Shown here: positions 1,435 through 25,347 of the stretch, piece by piece
How positions within the stretch are numbered: position 1 is the stretch's first letter
Layout: each line of letters starts with the position of its first letter
Assembly (NCBI GenBank): GCA_036443405.1
Contig: JAZFYD010000122.1
Location: 7,755-71,754, forward strand
Reading direction: 5' to 3'
DNA length: 64,000 bases
Origin: Planctomycetota bacterium
Lineage (GTDB): Bacteria > Planctomycetota > PLA2
The notes under the pieces: generated by a model
Database searches by the model: none
Told to the model about the DNA's origin: nothing
The model's input: the letters and a program-made list of their open reading frames with translations, nothing else
Translations under genes and position numbers: made by a program

Positions 1435-1440
1435 GTCTCC

Positions 1441-5288: not shown

Positions 5289-6974
5289 CTACTCGGTCAG
5301 GATCAAGCGCACGTCGTACGGTTCGTTTTGGCCGACCGAAAGCGCGCGGATCCGGATGAGGTACGCGCCACCCTGCACGTCCTGGACCGAAACCGGCGAC
5401 ATGCCTGATGCGAGAACGTTGTTCCGCAGATCGAGAAGGTCGATCTCGAGATCCGCGCTCGTGTTCTCCAGGGAAATCGTAAAGTTGGCTGTCCGGACCA
5501 ACTGCACCTTGAAGTAGCGTTGCGCGTGGAAGGCGATGTCGAGGTCGATATCCGGCGTCGTCGTATCGATTGCGTCCGAGAGCACGGTGTCGTACGGCGC
5601 GTGGATCGCCGCGCCCGTGATCGACTCGTGCGGGAAAGGCGGCGGCCAGAGGGAGTCGTTCTCCTCGGTCGCGGGGTACGGGATCTCCTGGTTGTCCGGC
5701 GGCGTCAGCATGAGCATCCGCAGGGCGACCTCATCGATGCTCTGGTCGCTCACGTACGCGTCCAGCAGCGTCAGGAGATAGGGATAGTTGATTCCGGCAC
5801 TCGGTTGCCGAAGGAACTGCAGGGAGAGCGCGAGGGGGAACGCCGCCATCGGATCGTCATCGTCGAGGCCGCCGTCGTGGATGTCCCACAGGACCTCGGC
5901 GACGGAGAATCGCGAGCCGATGCCAACTACGTCGTCCGGCTGGTAGACGTTGGGGTCATCCGGTCCGAGCGAACCGAGCGTTTCGGAGAAATACGATTCG
6001 ATGTCGAAGTATCGAATGACGCGCCCGGCGGGGCCGATACCCTCGGTGTCCCAGTAGACCGGGGAGCCGCGGCCCATGCAGGCCCAGAAATCGAGAAAGC
6101 CCTCACGCCAAGCGAGCGTGGGAACCATGAGTTGATCGTTGGGCTCCCCGTCCGGCACGACGGCGAGAAAGAAGTAGTTCAGAAGGTACTCGCCGTGCAG
6201 ACGCATGAGCTTGGGCTCGTCCCAGACATCGCGGTTCGATGTCGGATCCCCGGTCACGCCGCCGGCGACTTTCAGGGTCGCGCGCGTGCTGCCAAACGAC
6301 GTGTATTCGGAGACCGCGCCGTTGCCCGGACGATAATGCACGTCCAGGTCCGGCATGGTTGTGCCCAGGATGCCGGACTTCGCGGCCATGAACCCCTCGT
6401 AAAGGACGTCGCAGATCATCCACGCGCCCGGAACACTGTCCTTCGGGACATCGAGGTTGATGTTCATCGTCTCGATCCCGATGAGATCGTTGGACGGACC
6501 CGGATCTCCGGACGGCGAGCCGGTGTACGAGTAGCTTTCAGTTGCGAACTCGTCGGGTAGGACACGAATGTCCGTTCCGAACGGAAGATGAACTTCGGCG
6601 CGCGTAGTCAGGACGATCTGAGTCGCGGGGCGCTGGCCGAAATTGACGATGAGCGAGAACGCGCCGAGGGCGTCGGTCTGGAGGATCGCATCGTTGCCGT
6701 CCAGGTCGACAAGCATTCGGCCATCCGAGTCGCGCAGTTCCACGACCACGCGCGGTGCCGGGAGCGGAAGCTGCGACTCGAAAAACTGGGACGAGGCCAG
6801 TCGGCCATCCGCATCGCGATCACTGAGCAGCGGGCCGGTTATCCAGAAACGAACCTGGCCGGTGACCGTCCGGGTGGTGTCGCGCGTCCCGGCCGTCACG
6901 ATCTCAGGTCCACCGGATCCACCGCATGCGATGCAAATCAGGGATATCAGAACCGCGAACCACGCTGCACGCAC
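5289..6974 (-). CDS. Lipoprotein with degenerate zinc-metallopeptidase-like core and C-terminal PPC-like domain
   Basis: Lipobox IAC; acidic 561-aa ORF; AWREGF and VLWDIHD motifs; C-terminal ADLEIDLLD...GAYLIRI beta domain. Confidence 0.65.
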   Translation of the reverse strand: MRAAWFAVLISLICIACGGSGGPEIVTAGTRDTTRTVTGQVRFWITGPLLSDRDADGRLASSQFFESQLPLPAPRVVVELRDSDGRMLVDLDGNDAILQTDALGAFSLIVNFGQRPATQIVLTTRAEVHLPFGTDIRVLPDEFATESYSYTGSPSGDPGPSNDLIGIETMNINLDVPKDSVPGAWMICDVLYEGFMAAKSGILGTTMPDLDVHYRPGNGAVSEYTSFGSTRATLKVAGGVTGDPTSNRDVWDEPKLMRLHGEYLLNYFFLAVVPDGEPNDQLMVPTLAWREGFLDFWACMGRGSPVYWDTEGIGPAGRVIRYFDIESYFSETLGSLGPDDPNVYQPDDVVGIGSRFSVAEVLWDIHDGGLDDDDPMAAFPLALSLQFLRQPSAGINYPYLLTLLDAYVSDQSIDEVALRMLMLTPPDNQEIPYPATEENDSLWPPPFPHESITGAAIHAPYDTVLSDAIDTTTPDIDLDIAFHAQRYFKVQLVRTANFTISLENTSADLEIDLLDLRNNVLASGMSPVSVQDVQGGAYLIRIRALSVGQNEPYDVRLILTE

Positions 6975-7056
6975 GATCGTCTCCTTGCCAACCTACTGGC
7001 GCCCACGGAGATTATAGGGCGTTTCGATGCGTCGTCAGACGGTTGCCGCGGGCGGC

Positions 7057-7743
7057 CTACCTGCAGCCGACTCGATTCAGGACCGAACGCGCCAATTGCG
7101 CGGATTCTCCGCCGCTAGCGGCGTCGAGATAGGCGGCGAGTTCAGCGGCGACGTCGAACGGAGTGCCCTGTTCGGAGTAGACGCCGGCCATCGCGAGCGC
7201 GCATCCAGCCGCGTCGTTCGCGGCCCGCGCGGCAGCGACGAGGCGCGCCAGATTCTCCGGCAGCTTCTCCACTACGGAAAACGTGCCGGACGCGACGGAA
7301 CCCATGCGCGATCCGTTCGCACTCAGGGCCTGGGTTTCGAACTCGTATGTCGCGCCACGGTCGAGATGCCCCGGGGCCTTCAGGACGTGATAGGAGCCGT
7401 CGACCACGATGGGGCCGAGCCACGTGCGGCCTTGCGTGCCGTTTCCAGCGACCTTGCGCACGATCAACTCGTAGCGCATCGCGCCGTCCTTTTTGGGCCA
7501 GAAGAACACGGGTCGGTCCGTGAGGATCTCGTCGACCGGGCCGGACTCCGCCGGAACGGGCTCGTAACGTTCCAGCCGCCGCTTCGCGAGGCCCTGGGAA
7601 AAGTCCGTCGGCGCGCCGTCGGTCACCGGGATCGCGAAGCCGATCACCAATCCCGCGAGGATCATGCCCGAAAACGCCCAGAGCGGCGGCAGTGAATCCA
7701 ACCGGGAACTCGTGTCGTTGGCGGGTGTGTTTTGGTCGCTCAT
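7057..7743 (-). CDS. Membrane-anchored hypothetical protein (possibly DUF928-like)
   Basis: N-terminal TM helix; LTDRPVFFW, LDRGATYEF and AGVYSEQG..FD resemble DUF928-type motifs (by eye). Confidence 0.6.
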   Translation of the reverse strand: MSDQNTPANDTSSRLDSLPPLWAFSGMILAGLVIGFAIPVTDGAPTDFSQGLAKRRLERYEPVPAESGPVDEILTDRPVFFWPKKDGAMRYELIVRKVAGNGTQGRTWLGPIVVDGSYHVLKAPGHLDRGATYEFETQALSANGSRMGSVASGTFSVVEKLPENLARLVAAARAANDAAGCALAMAGVYSEQGTPFDVAAELAAYLDAASGGESAQLARSVLNRVGCR

Positions 7744-7777
7744 GCTTTTTCTCCGCGCACCGCTCGTGCGCGGCCTT

Positions 7778-8224
7778 TTATGTACCGGTACCGTGGGCGG
7801 GGGGCAAGTTGACAAGGTCGAGGCGCAGGAGCACGGAGTGCATGTTCCCGGGCTCGAGGGAGTAGGAGCGGATCCTCGGGCCCCAGGCGGTCAGGATGCG
7901 TTCGAGCTGGGTGTCCGACAGACGGGGAATCGCTAGCGAGACCACGAAGCGTCCGTCCAGATCATCGATCTCGCAGGTTTCGGCGGCTGCGTCTCGGAGC
8001 AGCCGATGCAGCAGCGCCTCGAGCGAGGACGCCGGAACCGCGTTCGGCGGGATGCCGCGCACGTTGCGCAGGTGGACCCAAAACGCCCGTTGGCTGCCCG
8101 GATAATAGAGATGGGCGCTGCCACGCTGGTGATCCAGCAGGAGCGCTGCGCCGTCCCCGGTGCCCATCGCGTCGCGAAAAGACGGGGCCGGGACGACGAG
8201 CGAGCCGATCGGCGGGATTTCCAT
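7778..8224 (-). CDS. Hypothetical protein
   Basis: 148-aa ORF from MEIPPIG; divergent from the sigma54 activator gene. Confidence 0.6.
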   Translation of the reverse strand: MEIPPIGSLVVPAPSFRDAMGTGDGAALLLDHQRGSAHLYYPGSQRAFWVHLRNVRGIPPNAVPASSLEALLHRLLRDAAAETCEIDDLDGRFVVSLAIPRLSDTQLERILTAWGPRIRSYSLEPGNMHSVLLRLDLVNLPPAHGTGT

Positions 8225-8448
8225 GGAACACGTGCAATTGTACGTCTGTGGAATGCTTGTGGAATCGCGCCACAGGAGCGGATTTGCGCCCATGGCGTGG
8301 CGCGATTGGCGCGAACTTGGGGCGCGCGCCGCCGTGGCGGTTGCGGGGGCGCGACGTAAGCCGTTGTCGGTAAGGACGTTATCGCTGCGGCGTGACCGGT
8401 ATTGCGCTGGGTCGTGATCTTGCTATGCCAGTTGGCTGGAGGGTCGAC

Positions 8449-11400
8449 ATGGATCGGAACGCTCTGCGAGACCACGTTCAGGCTGCGGCGCGCCAATTGG
8501 CGCCACCGTTGGGCGAGGGCACGATCGAGTGGGACTACTCGCGGCTTTCGCGGGCGCTCGGGCTTGTTGGCAAACCGGGCCTGTCGGATCTTCCGCACGG
8601 CGGTGTTTCCGTCTTGGAGCTGGAGGCCAAGGAGTGGGATACGTCGGCGCGTGTTTATGAGGTTTGGGCCGCGGAGCTCGGTTGGGGCTTCACCCGGCTG
8701 AGTGCCCGGCCGACCGCAGTGGTTCCGGATCCGGTTGTGCACTCGCTCGGAGTAGCGTTTGCCGGGAGCGACAGCTTGATCTTCGCGAGGGCGTCGCGCG
8801 CGCGGCGGCCGCGCATCGGGGCCCGAAAGCGCAGCGCGGGTTGTTCGCTGCCGCTTGCGCCGGGGGAGCGTTGGCTGATCGCGTCGGATCGTGTGCGCCG
8901 GAAGTGTCGCGCCACGATCGCGCAGCGCGGGCAGATCGTCTTCATCGATAGCGCCGAGTGGTTGACCGGCGCGTCGGTGAGCAATCTTTCGTATCTGATC
9001 ACGGCGCATACGGCGTGGCGGAACCACATGCTCTCGAGCCCCGCCAAGTGCTACTTCGTGTTCGCCGCCCCGCCGGGTCGCGCGCGGCTCGTACATGCTG
9101 CGCTGGAGGGCTTCGGCATCACGGGCGACATCGGCGGAACGAAGCGGCCGTTCGCCGCGCGTTCGCGTGCAGGCATTTCCCATCGATCCCTGCGCGTCGA
9201 ATCCGAACATATCCTCTCGGCGCTCGAGGAGTCGCCGTTCGCGCTTGGCGCAAAGGACGTTGGCGCGTTGTTCGGCGCAAGCGGAGTACAGGTCTGCCGC
9301 GAGCTGGCGGATTCCGGGTTCGTGTTGCTGCGCACTGAGGCGGGCGAGGAGTGTTTCGTCCCGAATCCCGCGGCGACGGTCGATCTGCCCGAGGCGTCCG
9401 ACCGCGTGCGGCGGGCGTTGTTTCAGCACTATCGTGAGCGGCGCCGGCGGGCGCACGAGCATGTGACGATCGGGGCCCTGGTGTTGGCGCTGCGCATGAA
9501 TGACGCGCCGCGCGCGCAGGCCTGTCTTGGCCGGATCGGTTGCGCGGATGCCGCCTGCATGCCGCACGTACTTCTCGAGGAGATCGAGCAGGGCGTCAAG
9601 CGCATGGGTCTATCGCTGCGAACGGCGGATCACGCGGTGCTGTTCGCCGCGCGCGCACACCTGCGGGACTACGCGGCCGTGCGCGAGCGTGCGAACGAGA
9701 TCACGGCCACGCCGATTGCCAACCATGCCGATCTTGTGCGGTTCGTTCGGATCATGCTGAGTGTCGGCCGCGGCCATCTCGACGCGGCGATGCCGGAGGG
9801 GTTCTGGTCATCGATGACCGCGCCGTCGCTGGACCCGGCGCTGGCCGACAGCACGTTCATCCTCTGCGAGTTGTTCGCGCAGGCGCGCCTGATGACCATC
9901 GAGGAAATCGAAGCGCGTTTCGACGTCGCCAAACGAGCGCTCAAGAACCGGTCCAACGCCCGCGTCAATCGTGAACTGGCCGTGATGCTGAAGCTCGTTC
10001 AGCACCGCGTCGAAGCGGGAATTAGTGCGCGTCACGTTCGGCGCGTCGAGGTCGACGACTCGGACGTTAGCTTAGATCTTGCGCGAACGGTGATCGTCCC
10101 CGCCTACGTGACAACAACGGCGTTGTTCGCGGAACTCCAGGCTCGGGAGTACAGCCCCCGCAAGCCCCTGCCGCCTGAGGGTCGATTCGCCTGTTTGTCC
10201 CTGATGACGGCGGCGCCAGATCTAGCGAACCACATCGTGCAGTTGAGCAGCATGAGTAGGTCTCTCATTATTCGCGGGAGGCGATTCTTGCTTCGGGAAT
10301 TGGGTGACCATCTTGTGTTGTCTCACTTGCGATGCTTCAACCGCAGCGTAGCGAATGCGTTGCAGTTCTCGTTTCAATCGGCTGCCGGTGGGCGTTTGTG
10401 GTCTCGGAGCGCCCTCTCCTTGTTGTTCAATCAGCAGAGAGCCGCCAGATCTGACGGGTTAGAGGCCTCTACGCTCTCTCGCGCTCTACTCTGCGCTGGA
10501 GATATCCAGGGAGCACGTAGATTGCTCGAGAAGGCATGCGAGTCCCCTCGGTACGGTGGTATTTCCGCAGCGGAGGTAATTCAGACGGATGCGATTATCC
10601 AGCGGACAAGCCTCGACTGGGACCGCCTCCGAAGCGCGGCGCCCGTTCATGTCGGGAGGGTGGCGCCTGAGGCGGGCGGACTCTCAGCGAGCGTCGATCT
10701 CTTTCTGGCTGGATGCCGGGCGCTCGTAGCCAGAGAATTCTGCGATTCCGAGGATGCATTCCATCGCTCGGCCGGGATGCTGCGACCGATCGCACTCGGC
10801 GAGGTGCACGCTGTGCGAATGCTCGCGATCCAACACGCGGTCTTGGTGGGCCGACTCCGCCGAATCGTCGAAGGGCTAGGTCACGGTGGACGTCCCATCG
10901 ACTGGGTGCCTCTCGTGCGCAGGCTCTTACGGCCACCATATCTGCTCGAAGGGTCGGCCGATCCGCGGCGATGGTTTCTGGAAAAACTCGACTATCTACA
11001 CCTGTTGGCGGAAGAGCTCGCGCTCCGCTCCCGCTTGGACGAAAGGGGTGCCTTGGGCCTGGCCGCGTTGCTCTGGGAGGTATCAGGGACCGCCATCCAA
11101 GAGTCAGGCCGGGACCTGTTCGGCGTGTGGAAGAGTGTGGCCCCGGCGTTTCACTCGGCCGTGGCCCGCGCCCTCGACTCGACCGGGAAAAACACGGCTG
11201 GCATGATCTCGTATTCCGCATCGACTCTGCGAATTCTGAGCGAGGACCGTCTGTTGGATCCTTCGGCGTCACGCGGCCGCATGTTCGACTTGGTCCCGCA
11301 GATGTACCTGGTGCCGGGGGAGTCCGCTAGCCGGCGCGCGAGACGGCTCGACGAAACGTGGCCGGATGACGCCGTGTTGTTCGAACTCGCGCAGCGCGCG

Positions 11401-12534
11401 CAGCACGACCGGCTCCGTTCCCGGCGGCTGACGCTCGGAGGCCATCTCGGGACGCAGGTCGTGCATGGTGATGTGGAAGTGCGTCTCGATCCGCTCTCGG
11501 GCGATCGAGTGAAGATCGAGGTGCGGGAGTTGCGCCACGTTGCGCCCGCGCCAAGCTCCGCGGCGCGAGCGAGCCCGCGCCAAATCTGTGAATCCCCCGC
11601 GTATCTCGAGTTTCTGCGGGAGCTGCGAGTGGCCGCCCAGGTGGAAACAGCGGTTCTCTGCTCCGGTGAAACGGGTTCCGGGAAAGAGTACGCGGCGCGC
11701 ATGATCCACCGCATGTCGGCGAGAGCGGACGATCCGTTCGTACCCGTGGACTGTGGGTCCCTGGCCGAGTCGGTCGTCGAGGTGGAGTTGTTTGGGTGCA
11801 AGAGGGGCGCTTTCACCGGGGCGGAGGAAAGATCCGGGCTGATCGGTCAGGCCGATGGCGCGACGCTGTTTCTCGACCGCGTGGAGTCCATGTCGCCGCG
11901 TGTCCAGGTCATCCTGTTGCGGGTTTTGGAAAGCGGCGAGTACCGAAGAGTCGGAGGCGAGAAGGTCCGCCGGTCGGATTTTCGCGTCATCGCGGGCACG
12001 TCCGAAAAGCTCCATGAGCTCGTGGCCGACGGCCGGTTCCGTCTTGATCTGTACTACCGGCTCGGTGCGATGCATCTCCGTGTTCCGCCACTTCGCGAAC
12101 GTGAAAACGACGCGGCGGCCCTCGCGCGCCACTTTGCGGTCTCATCGGGCAAGCGCCTGACCGGCGAAGCGTGCCGGTTCATTTTGTCGCAACCGTGGCC
12201 GGGCAATGTGCGTCAGCTCAAGGGCTGCATCGAGGTGAGTGCCGCGCTCGCCGAAACCGGGTTGATCGGGCCCGACACGATCAAGGCGGCGCTTGACATG
12301 GGCGGACCCCGTTCGCGACCCGAAGACGCCAAACGGGATCCCGCGGAGTTGGCCTACCGCGCAGCCGCCGAGACGCTTGGTTCCGGCACCCTGTTCGAAA
12401 CGGCGGATTTCGCGCGTGTTGCGGAGGTCTCGCGACGTTCCGCGCAGCGGCACCTAAGGGCCCTGGCCCGGGCCGGCTTGGTGGTCCGCATCGGCGCGGG
12501 CCGGGGGACACGCTATCGCATCGCTACCGGGTGA
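8449..12534 (+). CDS. Giant sigma54-dependent enhancer-binding protein (AAA+ plus C-terminal winged HTH)
   Basis: GETGSGKE, ELFG, GAFTGA, TLFLDR, FRLDLYYRL, WPGNVRQL; C-terminal VSRRSAQRHLRALARAGLV..GAGRGTRY. Start chosen at ATG 8449 (GGAGG upstream); frame is open from 8392. Confidence 0.88.
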   Translation: MDRNALRDHVQAAARQLAPPLGEGTIEWDYSRLSRALGLVGKPGLSDLPHGGVSVLELEAKEWDTSARVYEVWAAELGWGFTRLSARPTAVVPDPVVHSLGVAFAGSDSLIFARASRARRPRIGARKRSAGCSLPLAPGERWLIASDRVRRKCRATIAQRGQIVFIDSAEWLTGASVSNLSYLITAHTAWRNHMLSSPAKCYFVFAAPPGRARLVHAALEGFGITGDIGGTKRPFAARSRAGISHRSLRVESEHILSALEESPFALGAKDVGALFGASGVQVCRELADSGFVLLRTEAGEECFVPNPAATVDLPEASDRVRRALFQHYRERRRRAHEHVTIGALVLALRMNDAPRAQACLGRIGCADAACMPHVLLEEIEQGVKRMGLSLRTADHAVLFAARAHLRDYAAVRERANEITATPIANHADLVRFVRIMLSVGRGHLDAAMPEGFWSSMTAPSLDPALADSTFILCELFAQARLMTIEEIEARFDVAKRALKNRSNARVNRELAVMLKLVQHRVEAGISARHVRRVEVDDSDVSLDLARTVIVPAYVTTTALFAELQAREYSPRKPLPPEGRFACLSLMTAAPDLANHIVQLSSMSRSLIIRGRRFLLRELGDHLVLSHLRCFNRSVANALQFSFQSAAGGRLWSRSALSLLFNQQRAARSDGLEASTLSRALLCAGDIQGARRLLEKACESPRYGGISAAEVIQTDAIIQRTSLDWDRLRSAAPVHVGRVAPEAGGLSASVDLFLAGCRALVAREFCDSEDAFHRSAGMLRPIALGEVHAVRMLAIQHAVLVGRLRRIVEGLGHGGRPIDWVPLVRRLLRPPYLLEGSADPRRWFLEKLDYLHLLAEELALRSRLDERGALGLAALLWEVSGTAIQESGRDLFGVWKSVAPAFHSAVARALDSTGKNTAGMISYSASTLRILSEDRLLDPSASRGRMFDLVPQMYLVPGESASRRARRLDETWPDDAVLFELAQRAQHDRLRSRRLTLGGHLGTQVVHGDVEVRLDPLSGDRVKIEVRELRHVAPAPSSAARASPRQICESPAYLEFLRELRVAAQVETAVLCSGETGSGKEYAARMIHRMSARADDPFVPVDCGSLAESVVEVELFGCKRGAFTGAEERSGLIGQADGATLFLDRVESMSPRVQVILLRVLESGEYRRVGGEKVRRSDFRVIAGTSEKLHELVADGRFRLDLYYRLGAMHLRVPPLRERENDAAALARHFAVSSGKRLTGEACRFILSQPWPGNVRQLKGCIEVSAALAETGLIGPDTIKAALDMGGPRSRPEDAKRDPAELAYRAAAETLGSGTLFETADFARVAEVSRRSAQRHLRALARAGLVVRIGAGRGTRYRIATG

Positions 12535-12604
12535 TGGGTCGACGTGGAGCGTGTTTGCGTCTCAAGCGGAGACGTGAGCCGAAGTGACGGAATCACTCAG
12601 TTGA

Positions 12605-15600
12605 ATGCCGCTAGATGTCGATACCGGGGCAGTGGATCCTAGGGAAAAAGGGGAATTCCGGTCGCTTCTGCCCCCTCGTTACGAGCTGACCAAGGTCCTG
12701 TCGTCGAGGCGCGGCGATGCGACGCTCCTCGTGTCGGATCAGGGTGTGCGCAGTTGCACCGCGGTTGTGAAATTGCAGCGGCTTCCACAATCGACGGGTG
12801 AGGACGAGATCTTCGCCTTCTCGCGTTTCGCGGAGCGTCTTTCTTCCATTCGAAATCCACACGTCGGGGTCCCGTACGCCTACGGCACCTGCCGGTCGTC
12901 CGATGGGGACGTCTACGGCTACACCGTCCGTGAGCACATTCGGGGCACCACGCTCGCCGCGCTGCCCGCCCCGGTCGACGACGACTCGCTCACAACGATC
13001 GCGCACCAGGTGTGCCGCGGTCTGGCGGCGATGCACGATGTCGGCATCTATCACTTTGATCTGAAACCTCAAAACGTCATCGCGCGCCGCTCGCGATCCG
13101 GTGTGGACCGTTTGAGTCAGTGCGTGATCATCGATGTCACGTATCGTCCGCAAGGGGTGGCGGAGGATGCGGCGCTCAACGACGTCACGCTTCAGTACAT
13201 CGCGCCCGAATTGGCCAGCGGCGGCGATGCGAGCCGGCGGTCGGATCTGTTCTCGCTGGGTGTCTTGCTATACACCGCCCTCTCGAGTCAAAAGCCCTTT
13301 CCGGGGTCCTCCGTATCCGAGGTCATCCGCCGACAAAAAGACCGCGCATACGTGCCTATCGCCGAGGTCGCGCCGCATGCCGACGACCAACTGCGGGCGC
13401 TCATCGAGCGCCTACTCGAACCCTATCCGGAGAACCGGCCCGGATCCGCGCAGGAAGTAATCGCGCATCTGTCCGAGCTGGGTCTGGAAGCGGCGCCGAT
13501 CTCCGGGGCCCCTTACCGCGCGCCGGTTCTTCTCGGCCGCTCGGAGGAACTCGCCGCGGTCACGCGCGATCTCGATGCCGGCAAGGCTCTCTTGGCGGTC
13601 ACGGCCCCGAGGCAGGGCGGCGTCACGGCGTTTCTGCGGGAGTTGCAGGATTCGGTCGAGAGTCACGGCCGAATCGTGCTCACCGCGGCTCCCGGCGCGA
13701 CAACGGGTCGGTCACTGCCGGAGCAACTGTATGCTCCCGTGCATGAACTCCTGCGGCGCCGTTCTTCCGAACTCGAGGCCGTCGGTTCCGCGAGTGCGCC
13801 GCGCCCGGCGCTCAGCACGACGGAGTTGCTCGATGATCTTCTCGCGGCCGCTCGCGACCACAGGATCGTTCTGTTCGTGGACGACATCGAGCTGTGCGAT
13901 GAACGCGAGGCGGCGTTCCTGAACCGTGTCGTCCGCCAGGCGCGGGCGACGAACTCGTCGGGGCAAGGGCACTGCCAGGTTGTGATCGGCGGGCGGACCG
14001 GCGCCGGAACCGCTCGGATCTGCGAACCCGACTCGGAAACAGGCCTGAAGCCGCTGACGGCCGACACTCTCTGCGCTCTGATCGTGCTCGAAAACACGAC
14101 ACTTCGGCGGAGCGAGGTCGAACTGGCCGCTTCGGAACTCGGTGGTCGGCCGGGTGCCGTGCTGGAGTTGGTCGCGCGTCTCGAAGGCATCGATCCTGCT
14201 GATCGCGTCGCCAAAATCCACGAGTTCGCGCGCAGCGGAAATCGGGACGCGGTCGCCTCGTACTTGGCGCCGGCGTCGCACAAGGAGTGGTCCGACGCCA
14301 TCATCGCGCTCGCGCTTTGGGGCGACAAACTGACGACCGACGAGTGGGGCTACCTCCGCACGCGCCTCGCTCCGCGCGCCGGCGAGGGGCCGCCGCCGGA
14401 CCGCGTCCGCGTGAGCGAGGATGGCGTGCGCGCATGCGGAGTGAACGTGCAGCGGGCCCTTGTGAAGGCGCTGCCCGACTGGCGGCGCAGCAAGATCGTC
14501 GAGGCTCTTCTGGATGCAGTCCGGCCCCGTTGGCGCATGCGTTCGCTGGAACGGTTGGCGCCGTTGGTCCGGTTTGTCGCCCAGCTGAACTCGATTCCCG
14601 ACCGGATCCGCTGGCCGCTTTGCCGCGCGATGTTTCTTCTCGCCGGTCAGAGGCGGTTTGCGGAGATACGCTCGGTGTGCGCCGGCGTGGGCGCGCGCGA
14701 TGGTGCGCCGTCTTGGGTAGCCGCCTTCGGCGCGTTCACCGACGACTCGGCGTCTGCGTCCGATGCCGGCCTTCCGGCCGGGGAGCCGTGGGGCATCTTC
14801 CGCGATTGGATCGTTGCGCGTCGCCACCGGCGCACGCGACACAATTCCGAGGCCATGCAGGCAGTGAGCCGGTCGGTCCGCAGCGATCTATCTCGTATCC
14901 CCAGCCGAGTCCTCGAGGAGTTTGGAACGCTGGCGGCGGATATGGGCGATTTGGATGACGCGAAGAGGGCGCTTCGCGCAATTCTGGAGCGGCTGGCGGC
15001 GTGGTCGAAGGCGGCAAACGTGCCAAGTCTTCGCGAGCTGCTTCGCGCGCCCGTGACCGTCGCGGGTCCGGTGGCGAGGACCCTGGCCCGCTACTACCGC
15101 GTCCGTGCTCGCGTGCAGGAGACACGTTCACGTTTTGGCTTGGCGGCCAAGTGCAGCCGTCGCGAGCGGCGCCTTCATTCCCTTCAGCGCAACCGGGCGG
15201 AGGAGGCGGCGTGTCTCAACAACGAGGCAATCGCATTGATCCGTGGCGGACGCTTTCATGACGCGGCTGGCGTCCTCACTACTTGTGTTCGGCTCCGCGA
15301 AGGCCTGGAGGACGAACGCGGGCTTGTCGCTGCGCTCAACAATCTTGCGTTCGCGTACTCGGAGGCTGCACAGTTGAGCGATGCCGCCAGTGCGCTCAAT
15401 CGCGCACGCGTGGTGGCGACCAGAAACGGTCTGCTGCGACATCGCAACACTTCGATGCTCCATCTAGGCTCGACATACATGCAGAGTGGCCGGCTACGAG
15501 ACGCGCGCCGCGTATTCTCGCGACTCGCGAAGATGTGTGTTGATCACGACGACGCGCGCGCTAGGGCCCTACTCAATTCGGCGCTTCTCGCGCTGGATGG

Positions 15601-17596
15601 TTGGCACCTCACCATCGCGGAGCGGCGTGTCGTCGCGCTCAAGGAGTTCTTGGGGAACGCATTAGGCATCGGCCCGGATGTCTGCGCGCACGCCGTGGAG
15701 GCAGAGATCGCGTATCGGACGGCCGATCGTGCGCGACTTCGTGACATCTTGGCAAGCGCGTCGCCGGACGACTCCAATCTGGACCACTACCGCGATTACC
15801 TTGGGGATACTGTCGTCAGCGCACGTGGATGGGACCGACTCGCCCGGGTGCGCCGCGCGGGCCGGAGGTCTCCGCATCGGACGGCGGCCTCGCTCGAGCG
15901 GCTCTTTTTCGTGGCGCGCGGGCGCGGCGTGCAACGCGCCGTCTTGGAGCGGGTTCTCGCTGCGCTTAAATCTGCCCGCACGATGACCGACGACGACGTT
16001 CGGGTCGCACTTGCGTGCATCGATCATCCGGAATTCAAGGACGGCCACGACGATCTCCATATTGGGATCCGTGCCCTCGTCGCCAAGACCCTGCTCCAGC
16101 AGGACAGGGCTCGCGAGGCGTGGGGCCTGCTCGAAGACGCGCTGCGGCGGTTCCGGCGGTTTGAAAAGAAGATCGACCGCTGGGGGGGAGACACCTGCGT
16201 TCTTCGCGATACGCACGCTCTTTTGGCCCAAGCGATCGGGAACACACCTGGCGACCGCAGCAAGTGGGGCGGCCGGAGCCTTCAGCTTCGCGCCGCGGCG
16301 TTTGATGCGATGGTCGCGAGCAGGGGCTCCGGCACGTCGGTGCGCCATCGTGAGCTTGGCCTCGTGGCGGGCATCAACGCGGCCCTGAGCGTGGTCGAGG
16401 ACTCGGAGGCGATGCGGGGCGCGCTCCTGCAGAGCGCAACCAAGTTTGTCGGTGCGCAGCGAGGCGTGCTCGTCGGTGTGGCCGAAGGCGAGCCCGTCGT
16501 CCGAGCAAGCTACGCGGTCGCCGATGTTAGTCACTCGGAAGGGATCAGCTGGTCCATCGTGAACCACGTTCTCGCTGCCGGAGAACGGGCGGTCTACAAC
16601 GACGCGCTCGCGTCCGAGGAGCTGGCGAGCCATCGGAGCATCGCGGCGCTTCATCTCCGATCCGTGATCTGCGTGCCGATTTTCCACGGCGAAGTGATTT
16701 CAGGTGCTCTCTACCTCGACCACCGCGGCATCGCGGGGTTGTTCGGGACCGGTGATGTGGAGCCTCTCGAGTGTGTGGCGAGGTTGCTCGCGCTCGAACT
16801 GGATCGAGCGTCCAAATGCAAGGACCACGAGGCGATCGAGCGGCAGCTCGAGGAGGCGCACCGGCATTTGCTCCGCACGGAGCGCAGCCGCGTCGTCGGC
16901 CAGGTCGCCGGTGGGGTCGTCCACGATCTCAAAAACCTCCTCGCGACGGTCATTGCGCGAGCCCAGATGGCGGCACAGGCCGAAAGCCAGGAACGAGTGC
17001 GGCACTCCCTTCGGGCCATCGAACAGGCCGCGCGGAACGGGGCCGACGTTTTGGCGAAACTTCAGGAGTGCTCCAGGGACCACTCCCGTGTTCCGAGCGC
17101 ACCCGTCGACATCGGGCAGATCGCCCGGGAAGCGGCGGAACTTCTCCGGCCGCAGGTCGCGACCGCGAAAGAGGAGGTGCGGCTCGAGCTCGAAACGGCG
17201 GATGACTGTGAAGTCACGGGCGTCTCCGGCGAGTATCGCGAGCTCTTCTTGAACCTGATGAACAACGCGCTCGATGCGATGACCGGTGGCGGAGTGTTGC
17301 GGGTCCAGGTCAAACGCGTCGGCGATGACGTGAGCATCGAGGTCGCGGATACCGGGGTTGGGATGAACGAACAGGAGCTCGCCCGCGTATTCGAGCCGTT
17401 TTATTCGACAAAGGGCGCTGGTGGCACCGGCCTCGGCCTCGCGATTGTGAGAAAAGTCGTTATTCGCGACGCGGGTACCATCGACGTCGATTCAAAGCCC
17501 GGTGTGGGTACGACATTCAGCATCCTGGTCCCCGCCTGTCGTGACCAAGAATCACGCCCCGCAGCAATTCCGCGGGGCGTGATTGAGCAGGGTTAG
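12605..17596 (+). CDS. Multidomain sensor: Ser/Thr kinase-like, STAND-type ATPase-like, TPR, GAF, histidine kinase
   Basis: HFDLKPQN, YIAPE, SDLFSLG; LLGRSEEL, LFVDD; TPR-like AACLNNEA and AALNNLA; GAF LRSVICVPI..GALYLD; VVHDLKNLL, NLMNNALDAM, DTGVGM, FEPFYSTK, GTGLGL. Confidence 0.9.
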   Translation: MPLDVDTGAVDPREKGEFRSLLPPRYELTKVLSSRRGDATLLVSDQGVRSCTAVVKLQRLPQSTGEDEIFAFSRFAERLSSIRNPHVGVPYAYGTCRSSDGDVYGYTVREHIRGTTLAALPAPVDDDSLTTIAHQVCRGLAAMHDVGIYHFDLKPQNVIARRSRSGVDRLSQCVIIDVTYRPQGVAEDAALNDVTLQYIAPELASGGDASRRSDLFSLGVLLYTALSSQKPFPGSSVSEVIRRQKDRAYVPIAEVAPHADDQLRALIERLLEPYPENRPGSAQEVIAHLSELGLEAAPISGAPYRAPVLLGRSEELAAVTRDLDAGKALLAVTAPRQGGVTAFLRELQDSVESHGRIVLTAAPGATTGRSLPEQLYAPVHELLRRRSSELEAVGSASAPRPALSTTELLDDLLAAARDHRIVLFVDDIELCDEREAAFLNRVVRQARATNSSGQGHCQVVIGGRTGAGTARICEPDSETGLKPLTADTLCALIVLENTTLRRSEVELAASELGGRPGAVLELVARLEGIDPADRVAKIHEFARSGNRDAVASYLAPASHKEWSDAIIALALWGDKLTTDEWGYLRTRLAPRAGEGPPPDRVRVSEDGVRACGVNVQRALVKALPDWRRSKIVEALLDAVRPRWRMRSLERLAPLVRFVAQLNSIPDRIRWPLCRAMFLLAGQRRFAEIRSVCAGVGARDGAPSWVAAFGAFTDDSASASDAGLPAGEPWGIFRDWIVARRHRRTRHNSEAMQAVSRSVRSDLSRIPSRVLEEFGTLAADMGDLDDAKRALRAILERLAAWSKAANVPSLRELLRAPVTVAGPVARTLARYYRVRARVQETRSRFGLAAKCSRRERRLHSLQRNRAEEAACLNNEAIALIRGGRFHDAAGVLTTCVRLREGLEDERGLVAALNNLAFAYSEAAQLSDAASALNRARVVATRNGLLRHRNTSMLHLGSTYMQSGRLRDARRVFSRLAKMCVDHDDARARALLNSALLALDGWHLTIAERRVVALKEFLGNALGIGPDVCAHAVEAEIAYRTADRARLRDILASASPDDSNLDHYRDYLGDTVVSARGWDRLARVRRAGRRSPHRTAASLERLFFVARGRGVQRAVLERVLAALKSARTMTDDDVRVALACIDHPEFKDGHDDLHIGIRALVAKTLLQQDRAREAWGLLEDALRRFRRFEKKIDRWGGDTCVLRDTHALLAQAIGNTPGDRSKWGGRSLQLRAAAFDAMVASRGSGTSVRHRELGLVAGINAALSVVEDSEAMRGALLQSATKFVGAQRGVLVGVAEGEPVVRASYAVADVSHSEGISWSIVNHVLAAGERAVYNDALASEELASHRSIAALHLRSVICVPIFHGEVISGALYLDHRGIAGLFGTGDVEPLECVARLLALELDRASKCKDHEAIERQLEEAHRHLLRTERSRVVGQVAGGVVHDLKNLLATVIARAQMAAQAESQERVRHSLRAIEQAARNGADVLAKLQECSRDHSRVPSAPVDIGQIAREAAELLRPQVATAKEEVRLELETADDCEVTGVSGEYRELFLNLMNNALDAMTGGGVLRVQVKRVGDDVSIEVADTGVGMNEQELARVFEPFYSTKGAGGTGLGLAIVRKVVIRDAGTIDVDSKPGVGTTFSILVPACRDQESRPAAIPRGVIEQG

Positions 17597-17614
17597 CGTG
17601 TGCCCGGCGAGCGG

Positions 17615-17956
17615 CTAGTCGTGCACTAATTCGCCGCCGAGGCCCATGCTCGCCAGCAGGTCACCGTTAGGCGAGACAACGTCGATGCGATCGAGCGAGG
17701 CGCCGGCCGGGAAAGAGATCCACGCGGTGCCGGTGATCGGATCGAGGAAGGCGACGTCGCAGTCGAACTCCTCGCCGTTGGCCACCGACACGGCGACGAC
17801 AGTCGAGCCCGCGGGGTGTCCCGGGCTCGAGACGTGGAAATAGGTTCCCGACTCGTCCGAGACCTTCTCCAGGACCTCGATCCCCGATGCGGCGTACACG
17901 GTGCCGGCGGTCAGAAACAAGCCAAGTGCGAGCAGCCTTGTCATCCTGTTCTTCAT
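17615..17956 (-). CDS. Small secreted protein (113 aa)
   Basis: AAGGAGAG RBS; Sec signal MKNRMTRLLALGLFLTAGTVYA; beta-rich mature region ending GLGGELVHD. Confidence 0.8.
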   Translation of the reverse strand: MKNRMTRLLALGLFLTAGTVYAASGIEVLEKVSDESGTYFHVSSPGHPAGSTVVAVSVANGEEFDCDVAFLDPITGTAWISFPAGASLDRIDVVSPNGDLLASMGLGGELVHD

Positions 17957-18425
17957 CTCATCTCTCCTTGTTCCGCGTCCCCCATGGATGTCTCCATGGA
18001 TGGTGGAGTGGGGGGCGCGTTTGATGGGATTCATTCCTGTTGCAACCATGCTGCTTCGGTTCGTCCATTGCCACAAGCTTCAGGCTGGGCTCGTATGGCG
18101 AATATCGAAGAAATTGCACATTCAGTAACACGTTGCTATGCAAGCGGTTAGGTATATCACGGTGCTAGATAGCGGCATATGCAGGAAAGTTTGTGCGCTC
18201 CGATGTTCGGACGATGAGACAAATCGAACGAATTGACTGCCGGTGAGCCATAAATGCGACTAATTGTTGGACTAGTTGGCTCACTTTGAGTCGCGACGCC
18301 TGGCGGGCGCCGTAATGCGTTTGCTTGGAGAGGCTTACGGCCACGGACGCGCGCGCGTCTTCGCGGATGGCAGCGCGAGCGCTATTCTCAGGAGAAAAGC
18401 GGCCGGCGTGCGTAGAAGAGGGTGA

Positions 18426-19103
18426 GTGGTGCCCAACGTGGAGTCGAGTCGAAACACGCCCGATGGAAGGATCTTCCGAGCGCGTTCGCAGGAACAGAGC
18501 CCGCGGCACGCAGCCGACCCGGACGCCGATATCGTTGAGCTGGCACGTTCGCCTGCCACCCGCCGCGTCGCGATCGGGGTCCTCTACGAGCGCTTCCAGC
18601 GCCGCGTTTACAACACATCGCTTCGGGTGGTCGGCGACGCGGACGAGGCGTCGGACATCCTCCAGGATGTTTTTGTGCTCCTGTTCCGCAAGATCCACAA
18701 GTTTCGGGCGCGCTCGACGTTTGCGTCGTGGGTGTACCGAATCACGGTAAACCTCTCCCTCGATCGCCTTCGTCAACGCAAACGCAATCCGCTCCTGGGT
18801 ATGGCGGGTAGCGCTCTCGACAGCCTCCAAGACGACATGGGCCGCGGCGCGCCCGAGCACGGTGCCGCGCTACAGGACTTGGAGGAGCACGTGCAGGCCG
18901 CCCTCGACGATCTGTCGCCCCGGCTTCGGATCGTAATCGTGCTCCGCTACCTCGAAGGCCTCTCCTATCAGGACATCGCCGCGATCCTGAGCTGCTCCCT
19001 GGGCACCGTGAAATCCCGGCTCAACAGGGCCCACGCCATCTTGCGCCGCACGCTTGCGCCGATGTACCAAGGCAAGTGGTTCTCCGACGCGCGCACGGCG
19101 TGA
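18426..19103 (+). CDS. ECF sigma factor (RpoE-like)
   Basis: Region 2 DILQDVF...FASWVYRITVNLSLD; region 4 LSYQDIAAILSCSLGTVKSRLNRA. Start uncertain. Confidence 0.9.
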   Translation: MVPNVESSRNTPDGRIFRARSQEQSPRHAADPDADIVELARSPATRRVAIGVLYERFQRRVYNTSLRVVGDADEASDILQDVFVLLFRKIHKFRARSTFASWVYRITVNLSLDRLRQRKRNPLLGMAGSALDSLQDDMGRGAPEHGAALQDLEEHVQAALDDLSPRLRIVIVLRYLEGLSYQDIAAILSCSLGTVKSRLNRAHAILRRTLAPMYQGKWFSDARTA

Positions 19104-19215: not shown

Positions 19216-22200
19216 CTAGCGCTTCGCCTTCTTCGTCGCTTTGGCGGTCGCTTTCTTGACCTGCTTTTTCAGAACAATGGGCACGCCGCTGGCGCCGCCG
19301 CTCGACGGCACCTTCGCCCACTGATAGCCGGCCATGTATACGCGGATCTCGAGCGCCCCTCCCGGCACCTTCAAGAGTTCGAAAGTGCCGTCGGGTTTGG
19401 CACGCGTCCCCGCGAACCACTGATTGTCGCGATAGGCCGTGAGTGACGGGGTCTGGTTGTTGGACACGATTGGCTGCCCCTGCTCGTCAAGCACGGTCCC
19501 GGTGATCTTGTAGGGCGATTCGAGGCGAATCGAAACCCGCGCTCCGTTCGTATTCGCCTGGACCGGCGCCGCTACCGATTCCTGCGACCACACCCTCAGC
19601 CAATACTCACCCGGAAACACGCCGCGGATGTGGATCTCACCCGTCTTGTCGGTCCGCGCGCCCTGATTCGCGCTCGACTGCATCACGCGCGTGCCGCCAC
19701 GGGATCGCCAATCCGCGAGCCGTTTCGACACCTCCGGATCCGACGAAGAGATCCAGACCCACAGATTCGGCGCCGGTGAACCATCGGGTTTTCGCACCTC
19801 GCCCCGGATGGACTCGCCTTTCGATAGGCGCAACTCGATGTCCTCGTCGTCGGCCATCGCCTTTGTCGTCGCCGGGAGAAACCCCGCCGCGCCCGCCAGA
19901 AACTCGACCCGCTCCTCGCCGAGCCCCTTCAACTTGAACTCGCCCCTCGTGTTCGTGATCGCCGTCGGTACCGACGGTTGTCTTGGCGCCTTCTTTTTCA
20001 AGAGCGCCGAGACCATCGCGCCCGCGACGGGCTTTCCGTCCGGCCCGACTACGCGGCCGCGCGCGATCGCGCCGCTCGAAACGGTGATGAGCAGTTCGTC
20101 CGTGCCCGTTGGGACAGGCCCGGCGTCCTTCTCCAGGAACGAGCCCGACTGGACCCCGCGCCCCTGACGCTGCGACTGGGGTTTCACCAAGATCGTGTAG
20201 GTGCCCCCCGCCAAGTGCCCGAGGCGAAAGTAGCCGGTCGCCGACGTGGTTGCCCCTGACCTTTGCTGCGGCTTTGCATCGCCCGTCATCGCGACGACCC
20301 GCGCGTTGGCAACCGGTGCGCCGTCCTCGTCCAGGACGAAACCGCTGATGAACTCCTTGCGCGTAATCTCCAGGCGAACCTGCTCGCCCGCCGCCAGATC
20401 GCGCTGCGATGCGCTCCCGTCGCTCCCGACGGCAGTTGCCGTCCACTTGCCCGGTCCCACACCTTTGATCTCGAACTTTCCGGCGCTGTCCGTTTTGCTC
20501 GAGCGTCTCTGGCGCACGTCGGTCTTGTCCCCCTTCTCCGTCTGCGGCGAAATGGACACCCAGCACTGGCCCGCCGGCGTGCCGTCATCGAACACCACCT
20601 GCCCCGAGATCGCGCCGCCCTTGATGAGCCGGACACGCACCTCTTTTGTTTCGCCCTTCGCGGGCAGCTTGATGTCCTTCACCAGCGTCGCGTCGTACTC
20701 CGCGTGCGCCGCGACGATGTAGGGCGGCGAGTTTGCGACCTGTGACCGAACCCACGACGGGATCGTGATCGAGAAACGGCCCTGGGCGTCCGTGACGCTC
20801 GCGTTCCACGTTTGGGACGCCAGATTGCGCGCCTGATTGAGCTGGTTGGCGGGCAACAGCCTCACGACCGCCGCGTGCAGCGGCTGATCGTTTTCGTCCT
20901 CGACCACACCGGTGAACCCGCCCTCGTCGTCGACTTCGACCACGACCTCGGTGACCTCGCCGATCGCGATCGCAAACTCCTTGGACTTCGCGGTCGGGTT
21001 GTACGTTTGCACATACGCCTCCTCCGCGTCGGTCGTCGGCGCGCCGCGATAGATAAGCTGCCCGAGCAGGTCGGCCTGCGCCCAGCCGATGTGCTGCGCG
21101 CCCACATACAGGTTGCCGCCGAGATTCGTCGGCGGAGGTCGATCGCCCAGAACGATGCGCGCGTGCACTTCCCCGGCGGGCGTGACCACCACGCGCTGCG
21201 ATTCGATCGCGCTGCCCTCTTCGGCGGTGAAGTCGAGGGTGATGCTGCGCTGGTTGTTCATGTAGCGGTTCAGCACGCGTGCCACTCCCGGCCCGATGGC
21301 CCCGATCGCGTAGCTGCCGTCGAGCACGTGTTCGAAGCGAAAGTGCCCGTCCGCGCCGCTGATTGTGTACCCGATCTCCTGGTGGCTGCTGTACTGGGCG
21401 TTCAGGCGGTTGAGAGTGAGGCGCACATCCGCGACCGGCGCGTCGGTCGATTCGTTCACGACTACGCCGGTCACGGTTTCGCCCATGGTGAGCGATGCGT
21501 CGACGGTCAGCGTCTCGCCGGCTTTGAGCAGTTCGGGCGGCAGCCGCAGGTCGCCGCGCGCCGTGGTCCGCTCGCCGTAGTCCGCGTGCTGAATCAACGC
21601 GGATCGGAGGTCGCCCGGCGCGAGATGGGGGATCACATAGGTGCCGTCGGCACTCGTTTCCGCTTCGCCCTTGCTCGTGGATTGTCCGGTACCGCTGGAG
21701 ATCGTGACCTTCGCGCCCGCGAGCGGTACGCCGCCCACTCCCGTTACGGTGCCACGCACGCTGCCACCCGGCGTCAGCTCGACGTTCAACGGGCCCGGCG
21801 CGGGAATCTGGGTCCACGAAGAGGACGACGCGTAGCCTTCCGCCGTAACCTCGATCCCGTGCATGCCCTTCGAGAGCATGTCGAACGAGAACTCGCCGGC
21901 CTCGCTCGTTTCGGTTTCGACAAACGCCGGCGGGACGCGCCAGTTGCCCCGAAGAATCGCGCGCACCTTCGCGGCCGCGATCGGCTCTGCCTTGTGGTTG
22001 GTAACGCGGCCCAGGAACTCGAACCCGGGCTCGAGGCGCAGCGTGATCTCCGCCGGGTTGGACTGGCCGGGGATGTAGATCAGGCCGCGCGTGACCGCGT
22101 ACCCGGGGGCGCGAGCTTCGATGGTGAGGCGTGTGCGGCGCGCGATCCTGATCTCGAACCGGCCATCACCGCTGGTCGTCGTCTCGCCGATCGGTGGAAA

Positions 22201-22566: not shown

Positions 22567-22729
22567 CTTTCCTCCATGTGAACGCCCGGCAGCAAGCCGT
22601 TTTTGGCGTTTCAGCGAAGTTCCAACCGGTCGCGAACGGACCCCCCAACCCAATAACGCTCCGCAGACCCTTGCGCGCTATCAAAAAAGTAACGGAAATA
22701 AGCGGGTGAGGTTCGGCAAGAGAAGATCG

Positions 22730-24807: not shown

Positions 24808-25347
24808 TTGGTCGATGAGACGCGGCTTGTTTCCCTGGCGCGCGGCGGTGATCGCGGTGCGGCCGGCGAATTGGTGCGCTTGCACGAGCGCGCAGTGTAC
24901 GCCGTTGCGCTGGCCCGGCTCCGCAACGAAACGGACGCGCGCGAGGTCGCACAGGAAGCGCTGGTCAAAGCGCTGCTGCGCCTCGACAAACTCCGCGACG
25001 ACACGAAGTTCGGCGCGTGGAGCGTACGCATCGCGATTCGTCTCGCGGCCGACCGGAAACGGCGCGCAAAGCGGCTGGCCAGCCTGACCGGCGAGAACGT
25101 CGATCCCGGAAAAGGGCCGATGGAGCGCCTGCTCGATCACGAGCGGCGTGAACGCCTGCTGGCGGAGTTGGGCCGGCTGCCCGAGGACGTGAGGCAGATC
25201 TTCCTGTTGCACTACGTGGATGGCGCGCGGTATGCCCGCATCGCCGAACTGCTCGGGGTCCCCGAAGGCACGATCGCATGGAAACTGCACCGAGCGCGGC
25301 GCAGTCTCCGCACGAGCCTGAGCGACCTCGTGGAGGAAGATCGATGA
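24808..25347 (+). CDS. ECF sigma factor
   Basis: AREVAQEALVKA, FGAW, YARIAELLGVPEGTIAWKLHRAR; stop overlaps the anti-sigma start (ATGA). Confidence 0.9.
   Translation: MVDETRLVSLARGGDRGAAGELVRLHERAVYAVALARLRNETDAREVAQEALVKALLRLDKLRDDTKFGAWSVRIAIRLAADRKRRAKRLASLTGENVDPGKGPMERLLDHERRERLLAELGRLPEDVRQIFLLHYVDGARYARIAELLGVPEGTIAWKLHRARRSLRTSLSDLVEEDR

Follow-up and report, generated by a model that had tools for sequence, protein, structure and literature searches.

A 64-kb stretch of planctomycete DNA, referred to below as the window (64,000 nucleotides of contig JAZFYD010000122.1, assembly GCA_036443405.1), carries two long tandem genes for a sigma54-dependent activator, or bacterial enhancer-binding protein (bEBP), and a cytoplasmic hybrid kinase, followed by a convergent small gene whose product is predicted to be exported. 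The N-terminal ~1000 residues of the activator, termed the sensor here, are, as modelled by AlphaFold, a STAND-like module consisting of an AAA+/NOD domain without a P-loop, a winged helix and TPR-like repeats. The best explanation of the whole, which we hold tentatively and with slightly less than even confidence, is that these genes belong to a family-specific signalling cluster, in which an activator-kinase operon is read from a sigma54-type promoter and the activator is gated by its NOD/TPR module.

The source genome (labelled G000) is an assembly of 4.17 Mb in 249 contigs that is 86% complete, and the window lies on its contig C122. The open reading frames agreed with an earlier reading of this DNA made from the letters alone (the sequence-only reading), which had described two giant regulators in tandem and a convergent small gene; the gene layout held, but the start of the region, given as position 8240, falls in intergenic DNA upstream of the activator. 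The principal features are as follows.

8263..8307, no strand assigned: inverted repeat, candidate enhancer (upstream activating sequence) or operator, AATCGCGCCA-N25-TGGCGCGATT, ~100-145 nt upstream of the promoter
8409..8425, plus strand: candidate sigma54 (-24/-12) promoter of the activator-kinase operon, GGGTCGTGATCTTGCTA
8449..12534, plus strand: sigma54 activator (bEBP), 1361 aa, analysed by Pfam, NCBIfam, an AlphaFold model, fold searches and orthologue alignments
12605..17596, plus strand: cytoplasmic hybrid kinase, 1663 aa, separated from the activator stop codon by 70 nt, analysed by Pfam, NCBIfam and a 6-sequence alignment
17615..17956, minus strand: exported Ig-like protein, 113 aa, convergent on the kinase gene and 18 nt from the kinase stop codon

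A STAND-like sensor in the sigma54 activator

Pfam recognised nothing in activator residues 1-1040, in agreement with the sequence-only reading that ~1000 residues match no recognisable domain. That this region is probably helical, as was also proposed, applied to residues 318-930 but not to residues 1-315. In the AlphaFold model (pLDDT 77.6 and pTM 0.75, with a 20-sequence alignment as input), residues 1-237 form a five-stranded alpha/beta domain with an AAA+/NOD-like fold that has no P-loop, residues 244-315 form a winged helix, residues 318-930 form TPR-like helical repeats, and residues 931-1021 form a disordered linker. In the activator, residue 1 is the codon ATG 8449, except for Pfam positions, which follow the longer frame given below.

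Two structural alignment runs, one of which was independent of Foldseek, gave mutually consistent results. Residues 1-237 of the modelled sensor matched the AAA+ domains of ORC, Cdc6 and Sir3 (Z 10-11, root-mean-square deviation 3.0-3.3 A, 155-163 residues aligned), and the winged helix at residues 244-315 matched those of the MarR type (Z 8.4-8.9). Over longer stretches the sensor matched the STAND-TPR protein 6mfv (Z 11.2 over residues 2-755) and, at Z 8.5-9.1, Apaf-1, CED-4, plant NLRs and MalT, with Z 9.1 for Apaf-1 and Z 8.8 for MalT 8bob over residues 1-387. The repeats matched the TPR subunits of APC (Z ~10), domain III of MalT (residues 458-880, Z 8.7, with structure 1hz4 also among the MalT matches) and RapI (residues 466-647, Z 8.7-9.0), although such Z values are modest for helical repeats and the likeness to RapI is too low to be informative for structures of this kind. 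The best Foldseek matches of the sensor were Avs3 (E 5.9e-6) and 6mfv (E 7.4e-4). A defence-system interpretation, raised by the Avs3 match, was dismissed after PADLOC returned only generic kinase and RtcR-type AAA+ matches.

The model thus contains the C-terminal repeat sensor of a STAND protein (the helical repeats at residues 318-930) and the fold of its NOD and winged helix, while the Walker A motif is absent. The GxxxxGK motif was missing from 6/6 aligned orthologues, in which strand 1 passes straight into helix 1, and the most conserved motifs of the sensor were EWDYSRxxRALGL and ERWLIAxDRVRRR. Because Walker A is absent, the module, although STAND-like in architecture, does not qualify as a STAND NTPase by its nucleotide switch, which it cannot operate in the canonical way. 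Neither Pfam nor a profile search of the PDB detected sequence similarity between the sensor and any STAND family, and the PDB profile search with the activator matched only sigma54 AAA+ domains. A cryptic receiver domain in the N-terminal region, which had been named as an observation that would speak against the sequence-only reading, was not encountered, as no CheY-like chain was found among the 50 best matches of 48,161 chains.

The sigma54 module of the activator

The activator reading frame opens at GTG 8392, and its conserved start codon is ATG 8449, which lies behind a GGAGG Shine-Dalgarno sequence and is common to all orthologues and to a database entry of 1361 aa. Pfam identified Sigma54_activat at 1066-1229 (E 1.5e-53), AAA_lid_14, and a DIP2311-like/HTH_20 winged helix at 1336-1377; these Pfam positions follow the numbering of P0001 (the frame from GTG 8392, 1380 aa), which exceeds the ATG-based numbering by 19. 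Counted from the ATG, the sigma54 AAA+ domain occupies residues ~1047-1210 and is followed by the lid and a C-terminal winged helix-turn-helix (HTH). Two hallmarks of bEBPs, the Walker A motif GETGSGKE and the GAFTGA loop, are intact in the window activator. No membrane segment was predicted in the activator (maximal 19-residue hydropathy was 1.33 for the activator and 1.52 for the kinase). Eighteen other sigma54 AAA+ genes were found in the genome. A paralogous sigma54 activator gene on contig C83 (locus L054:944-6082, plus strand) encodes a 1712-aa protein with the order CBM9-HAMP-GAF-Sigma54 and the same DIP2311-like winged helix, and this protein, with its N-terminal carbohydrate-binding-like CBM9 domain, may be a membrane-spanning bEBP.

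The hybrid kinase and the absence of a receiver

Pfam assigned to the kinase a Pkinase domain at residues 53-290 (E 1.6e-21), AAA_16 at 309-447, TPR at 869-990, GAF at 1273-1399, a weakly matching HisKA at 1432-1488 (E 0.0015) and HATPase_c at 1544-1644 (E 3.2e-25). No membrane segment was predicted. In the Ser/Thr kinase module, residues K56, D152, N157 and D177 are invariant in 6/6 orthologues, so that the catalytic Lys, the HRD Asp, the Asn and the DFG Asp of a Hanks-type kinase are all present in the alignment. The Gly-rich loop, however, is degenerate, and HFD and DVT stand in place of HRD and DFG. In the histidine kinase module, the H box (H1440), the N box (N1550/N1554) and the G1 and G2 boxes are likewise invariant in 6/6 orthologues, as was expected from the intact H, N and G boxes described earlier. 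The invariance of catalytic residues in six orthologues indicates that both kinase modules are under selection. The STAND Walker A of the kinase has no lysine in 6/6 sequences (GxGV/M-T/S), and its Walker B aspartates are kept. By NCBIfam, the transmitter is closest to VirA-like, AtoS and ZraS kinases.

The sequence-only reading had also found no receiver in the bEBP or elsewhere in the window, and a search with PF00072 gave 0 matches on contig C122, so that no cognate receiver is encoded in the same protein or operon; 35 PF00072 receivers are encoded elsewhere in the genome. A paralogue on contig C125 (locus L053:635-5842, minus strand) combines Pkinase, AAA_16, TPR, GAF and Sigma54 in a single chain of 1735 aa.

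Distribution and gene order

The occurrence of the three proteins was compared between 10 other genomes of the same Planctomycetota family and 29 genomes of the sister family. The activator sensor (residues 1-1021) was found in 10/10 family genomes and in 0/29 genomes of the sister family; it had 37 matches among 1.84 billion representatives, all of them N-terminally aligned orthologues or fragments, and no paralogue of the sensor region was found in its own genome. Word-index protein searches retrieved just the query protein or its close relatives. The central region of the kinase was found in 6/10 family genomes and, as weak TPR-only matches, in 2/29 of the sister family. The 4 family genomes without a kinase match are fragmented assemblies, and the C-terminus of the kinase was recovered in one, G004 (locus L050). 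A profile of the small protein matched 8/10 family genomes and, marginally, 2/29 of the sister family; the 2 family genomes without a match are 77% and 82% complete. As far as sequence searches can tell, the activator sensor, the kinase core and the small protein are restricted to one Planctomycetota family.

Activator and kinase genes stand in tandem on the same strand in 5/5 fetched loci, with gaps of 6-94 nt, and the tandem has persisted in 6 genera whose proteins are only 30-40% identical. In the window no terminator was predicted between the two genes. The small gene follows convergently after the kinase gene in 7/7 genomes in which this DNA is assembled (the window, G010, G002, G006, G007, G001 and G004). 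The proposed three-gene arrangement therefore recurs in relatives, and homologues without a conserved neighbourhood, the other observation named as speaking against the sequence-only reading, were not encountered, but the conserved block is larger than three genes and has the order up3-up2-up1, activator-kinase, small gene, extracytoplasmic function (ECF) sigma factor. The additional members of the block in the window are as follows.

5289..6974, minus strand: up3, conserved lipoprotein-like protein of 561 aa, left edge of the conserved block
7057..7815, minus strand: up2, conserved single-pass membrane protein, start codon uncertain
7778..8224, minus strand: up1, conserved cytoplasmic protein of 148 aa, divergent from the activator
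18426..19103, plus strand: ECF sigma factor (Pfam Sigma70_r2, Sigma70_r4_2 and Sigma70_ECF), divergent from the small gene

The genes up1, up2 and up3 were present in 7/7 loci with upstream DNA, and the ECF sigma gene adjoins the small gene in 8/9 genomes. The window genes to the left of up3 (SEC-C, AhpC and DsbD_N) were found in 0/7 loci, which argues that the block has edges and does not merely reflect genome collinearity. Proteins similar to up1 also occur in 19/29 sister-family genomes, and up1 stands alone in the two matching loci examined. No Pfam, NCBIfam or Atlas family was found for up1, and neither Pfam nor a further family look-up gave one for up2. For up3 there was no Pfam match; Atlas placed it in a widespread hypothetical family, whose look-alike clusters carry PPC in <40% of members, and its resemblance to mycolysin (TM 0.52) is no more than a lead.

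Conserved candidate regulatory DNA

A GG-N10-GC element of the form nGGCnCG-N4-TTGCTA was located 32-59 nt before the activator start codon in 8/8 orthologous loci, where it matched 7-10 of the 12 positions of the sigma54 consensus TGGCACG-N4-TTGCW. The chance of finding such an element in a 28-nt interval was 0.001-0.08 per locus, and these per-locus values do not multiply cleanly because the loci are homologous. In two loci (L034 and L036) the element before the activator was the only site in the whole locus that scored at least 10/12.

Further upstream, the half-sites of the inverted repeat, AATCGCGCCA and TGGCGCGATT, which is perfect in the window, are the only two exact copies there; genome-wide there are 16 exact half-sites, and this pair alone lies within 80 bp. 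Half-sites of the TGGCGCGATT type, located 110-190 nt before the activator start codon, were found with two or fewer mismatches in 8/8 loci and as an inverted pair in 6/8. Locus L037 contains ~4 kb of extra DNA between up1 and the activator gene (~5970 to 10000). Despite this insertion, the promoter and the inverted repeat stay with the activator. The gene rpoN was present in 9/9 family relatives and, as a fragment at a contig end, in the source genome. The combination of a conserved sigma54-type promoter with a genome-unique inverted repeat suggests an autoregulated operon, the layout of which is recognisable in the upstream DNA of these loci.

The spacer between the small gene and the ECF sigma gene (17957-18425), described earlier as an AT-rich region of ~470 bp, is 469 nt long with a GC content of 0.56, as compared with 0.63-0.69 around it. 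No known RNA is expected in this spacer, as an Rfam scan of the whole window gave 0 matches. It contains two conserved elements.

18174..18183, no strand assigned: conserved palindrome of the TGYATATRCA type, here GGCATATGCA, 217 nt before the small gene start
18210..18285, no strand assigned: direct repeats of the GACYAAW type, forming an AT-rich array before the small gene

The palindrome occurs once in 8/8 loci, 192-234 nt before the start of the small gene, and the repeats, starting ~50 nt beyond it, occur in 2-5 copies by the strict pattern in 8/8 loci; the combination of palindrome and repeat array is unique in the genome. Neither before the small gene nor before the ECF gene was a positionally conserved sigma54 promoter found across the loci. 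TGGCGCG half-sites in the same spacer were considered and set aside, as the window and 2 other loci have none, despite an overall enrichment (2.1 vs 0.57 per kb).

The exported GIEVL protein

The small protein has one N-terminal hydrophobic segment, at residues 8-26, in accordance with the Sec-dependent export that had been predicted for it. Its AlphaFold model is a 7-strand Ig-like sandwich (pLDDT 80.9), the fold of which matched only generic Ig-like domains (best Z 8.8), and Foldseek returned nothing for it at E <= 0.001. The invariant pentapeptide GIEVL is located directly behind the predicted signal-peptide cleavage site and is modelled as strand A. It occurs in 1-5 copies in 8/9 orthologues, with 1 copy each in the window and G003, 2 each in G001, G006 and G010, 3 in G007, 4 in G005, 5 in G002 and 0 in G004. 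The five copies in G002 are perfect tandem repeats that differ only at synonymous sites, which argues that each GIEVL unit is under selection.

The orthologue in G005 (locus L049:42-413, minus strand) has two GIEVL copies before the Ig-like domain and two after it, an arrangement that hints at strand exchange or display rather than at a simple N-terminal strand. The possibility that GIEVL is a general sorting tag was discarded, as only 6 six-frame occurrences were found in the genome, approximately the chance level. The sole other in-frame GIEVL in a long open reading frame, on contig C46 (~1418, minus strand), reads SGIEVLKGSSQILYGP, which we take to be like a plug-domain motif of TonB-dependent receptors and which is probably a coincidence. 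Among the papers listed as containing the string GIEVL, none is relevant as judged by title, and the searchable literature yielded no description of the motif.

Other genes in the window

Several other genes of the window were noted. A gene at 22700-24736 (plus strand) encodes an ECF sigma domain (regions 2 and 4) that is apparently fused in-frame to a long C-terminus of leucine-rich repeats by Pfam, which is unusual. An 882-aa protein encoded at 25278-27926 (plus strand) has a zf-HC2 anti-sigma N-terminus fused to CarboxypepD_reg repeats, and a 1145-aa protein encoded at 19216-22653 (minus strand) has 9 matched CarboxypepD_reg stretches; homologues are located near the cluster in some relatives. 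Adjoining DUF1501 and DUF1800 genes, a pairing common in Planctomycetota, are located at 265-2640 (minus strand).

Proposed mechanism and alternative explanations

The analysis shows how the proteins are built and folded, that no receiver accompanies them, that the genes are co-distributed and syntenic, and that DNA elements are conserved; the binding partners, the autoregulation and the direction of signal flow are inferred, as follows. The activator and kinase genes would form a two-gene operon, in this order, read from the sigma54-type promoter with the dedicated inverted repeat upstream. In the activator, a STAND-derived sensor would have replaced the usual receiver, GAF or PAS input, and its NOD/TPR module would restrain the sigma54 AAA+ ring as long as no ligand or partner from the cytoplasm is bound. 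STAND regulators of the MalT and AfsR type are gated in a like manner, as are activators under negative control, for example NorR. The C-terminal winged HTH would bind the inverted repeat, and the operon would then amplify its own expression. The co-transcribed kinase would act in the same pathway and probably feed the activator via Ser/Thr phosphorylation or via contacts with the NOD/TPR module, not via His-Asp transfer, while its intact histidine kinase core would signal to an unlinked response regulator. A kinase-to-activator coupling that bypasses His-Asp transfer is plausible by analogy, because there is no receiver, the pairing is conserved, and AfsK and AfsR provide a precedent. The exported GIEVL protein is co-conserved with the ECF sigma factor, and the two are more likely to be an envelope-side output or accessory than a ligand of the cytoplasmic sensors.

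A number of observations weigh against this proposal. No homology was detected between the sensor regions of the activator and the kinase by profile-profile comparison (hhalign probability 1.2%). Kinases such as AtoS, ZraS and VirA, to which the transmitter is closest, normally pair with receiver-bearing activators, and the kinase may use one of the 35 receivers encoded elsewhere. The -24 element of the window, GGGTCG, is weak (7/12, chance probability 0.08) and is among the weakest of the 8 loci, and the inverted repeat, being only ~40-85 nt from the start of up1, could be an operator of up1. The Walker B motif of the window activator reads LFLDR, with Arg in place of the catalytic Glu of the DE motif. 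This Glu is needed for ATP hydrolysis, as is known from work on PspF and NtrC1, and because the motif reads DR the window activator may not hydrolyse ATP. None of the 18 listed sequencing runs was an RNA-seq run that contains this DNA. In addition, the loci compared are related by descent, and agreement among them is not independent evidence.

It is possible, although we consider it unlikely, that the two regulators are neighbours with separate jobs, in which case an orphan kinase would signal to an unlinked response regulator, the activator would sense a ligand of its own, and co-transcription would merely co-ordinate their supply. The 35 receivers elsewhere in the genome and the lack of detectable homology between the two sensor regions fit this alternative, as does the fully intact and conserved histidine kinase core, from which it can be argued that the kinase has a phosphoacceptor; in addition, the direct repeats before the small gene may resemble the tandem sites of response regulators. 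What separate jobs would leave unexplained is that the same-strand tandem with its short gaps has been kept across 6 genera at such low identity, that activator and kinase genes are confined to the same family, and that the flanks outside the block are not conserved. A different concern is whether the window activator works as an ATPase at all. We regard it as quite improbable that it is an ATPase-dead derivative, serving as a DNA-binding repressor or scaffold or being active only in mixed rings with another bEBP, for which any of the 18 other sigma54 AAA+ genes could supply the partner. Such a derivative would be consistent with the DR of its Walker B and the weak -24 element, and among 14 orthologues Walker B reads DE in 8, DD in 2 and otherwise in 4, while GAFTGA deviates in 6. 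Nevertheless, DE is kept in most orthologues, Walker A and GAFTGA are intact in the window activator, and its reading frame is intact over 1361 codons.

The small gene was interpreted in the sequence-only reading as encoding a partner ligand of the two regulators. This direct role is topologically doubtful, as the product is a folded, exported Ig-like domain and neither regulator has a membrane segment, so that re-import or a relay would be needed. A related idea, that the exported protein is a carrier or precursor of a GIEVL peptide or protein ligand, which the activator, the kinase or both would sense with their TPR modules in the manner of RRNPP/Phr systems, is kept as an alternative of low probability because the GIEVL unit is so strongly conserved. 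The pentapeptide sits directly behind the cleavage site, its copies in G002 differ only synonymously, one genome has two further copies after the Ig-like domain, the small gene is co-conserved with two TPR-bearing regulators, and RapI is among the structural matches of the activator TPR region (Z 9.0), although at a level below what is informative for helical repeats. Against this, both regulators are without membrane segments and signal peptides, the conserved block encodes no oligopeptide transporter by which the signal could be re-imported, GIEVL is strand A of a confident 7-strand sandwich and not a free propeptide, and the orthologue in G004 has no GIEVL. We would likewise give little credence to a scheme, of a signalling type not known before, in which the exported protein displays or releases its 1-5 copies of GIEVL and the signal is read, after uptake or via the co-conserved membrane protein and lipoprotein pair, by two cytoplasmic STAND/TPR receptors, one of which drives sigma54 transcription without a receiver or a nucleotide switch. 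The family-specific cluster with a NOD/TPR-gated activator is the explanation retained below.

Comparison with known systems

The activator shares with MalT and AfsR a common plan, in which a NOD and a winged helix precede a sensor, either TPR or superhelical, by which an output that activates transcription is gated. According to a published account (PMC10936776), the STAND activator AfsR is phosphorylated, in both its NOD and its TPR domain, by AfsK, a nearby Ser/Thr kinase; here a gene that bears a Ser/Thr kinase domain adjoins the activator gene. In MalT and AfsR, however, the output is a LuxR or SARP DNA-binding domain, whereas here it is a sigma54 AAA+ domain with a winged HTH; and while STAND proteins are defined by an ADP/ATP switch, the NOD of the activator has no P-loop and such a switch cannot operate. 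The single-chain Pkinase-AAA_16-TPR-GAF-Sigma54 regulators, exemplified by the paralogue on C125, consist of the same building blocks as the cluster. Here they are divided between two genes. The protein with the Ser/Thr kinase has HisKA-HATPase, not a sigma54 domain, at its end, and the sigma54 protein lacks GAF and contains an unrelated NOD/TPR module of its own that is without a P-loop.

As in NtrC-family pairs such as AtoS/AtoC and ZraS/ZraR, a histidine kinase gene adjoins a sigma54 activator gene, and AtoS and ZraS, together with VirA, are the closest relatives of the transmitter. Operons of the NtrC family are often autoregulated from sigma54 promoters, as stated in PMC12316311. In contrast to these pairs, the activator described here has no receiver and a winged-helix rather than a Fis-type HTH DNA-binding domain, the gene order is activator then kinase, and the kinase, a cytoplasmic protein, also contains a Ser/Thr kinase domain and a STAND module. 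With the RRNPP systems (Rap/Phr and AimR/AimP) the cluster shares a cytoplasmic TPR sensor beside a small Sec-exported protein with a short conserved peptide, but here the small protein folds as an Ig-like domain, the block encodes no peptide importer, the organism is a diderm, and the TPR similarity is generic.

Significance

The usual switches of sigma54 activators are small domains such as receiver, GAF, PAS and V4R. In the activator described here, the place of the small input domain is taken by a STAND-like module of 1000 residues that would not bind nucleotide via a P-loop, and no description of a STAND-type bEBP input or of this architecture was found in the searchable literature, the coverage of which excluded subscription journals. 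The sensor would represent a new input class for sigma54 activators, and beyond one uncultured family no relatives of it are detectable by sequence.

To our knowledge, signal transduction in Planctomycetota is almost unexplored. If the sensor gates the AAA+ ring, it would join NOD/TPR receptors to enhancer-dependent transcription, and its pairing with a dual Ser/Thr and histidine kinase would provide a concrete case for kinase-activator wiring without a phosphorelay. The GIEVL protein and the two genome-unique DNA elements offer well-defined targets for heterologous work.

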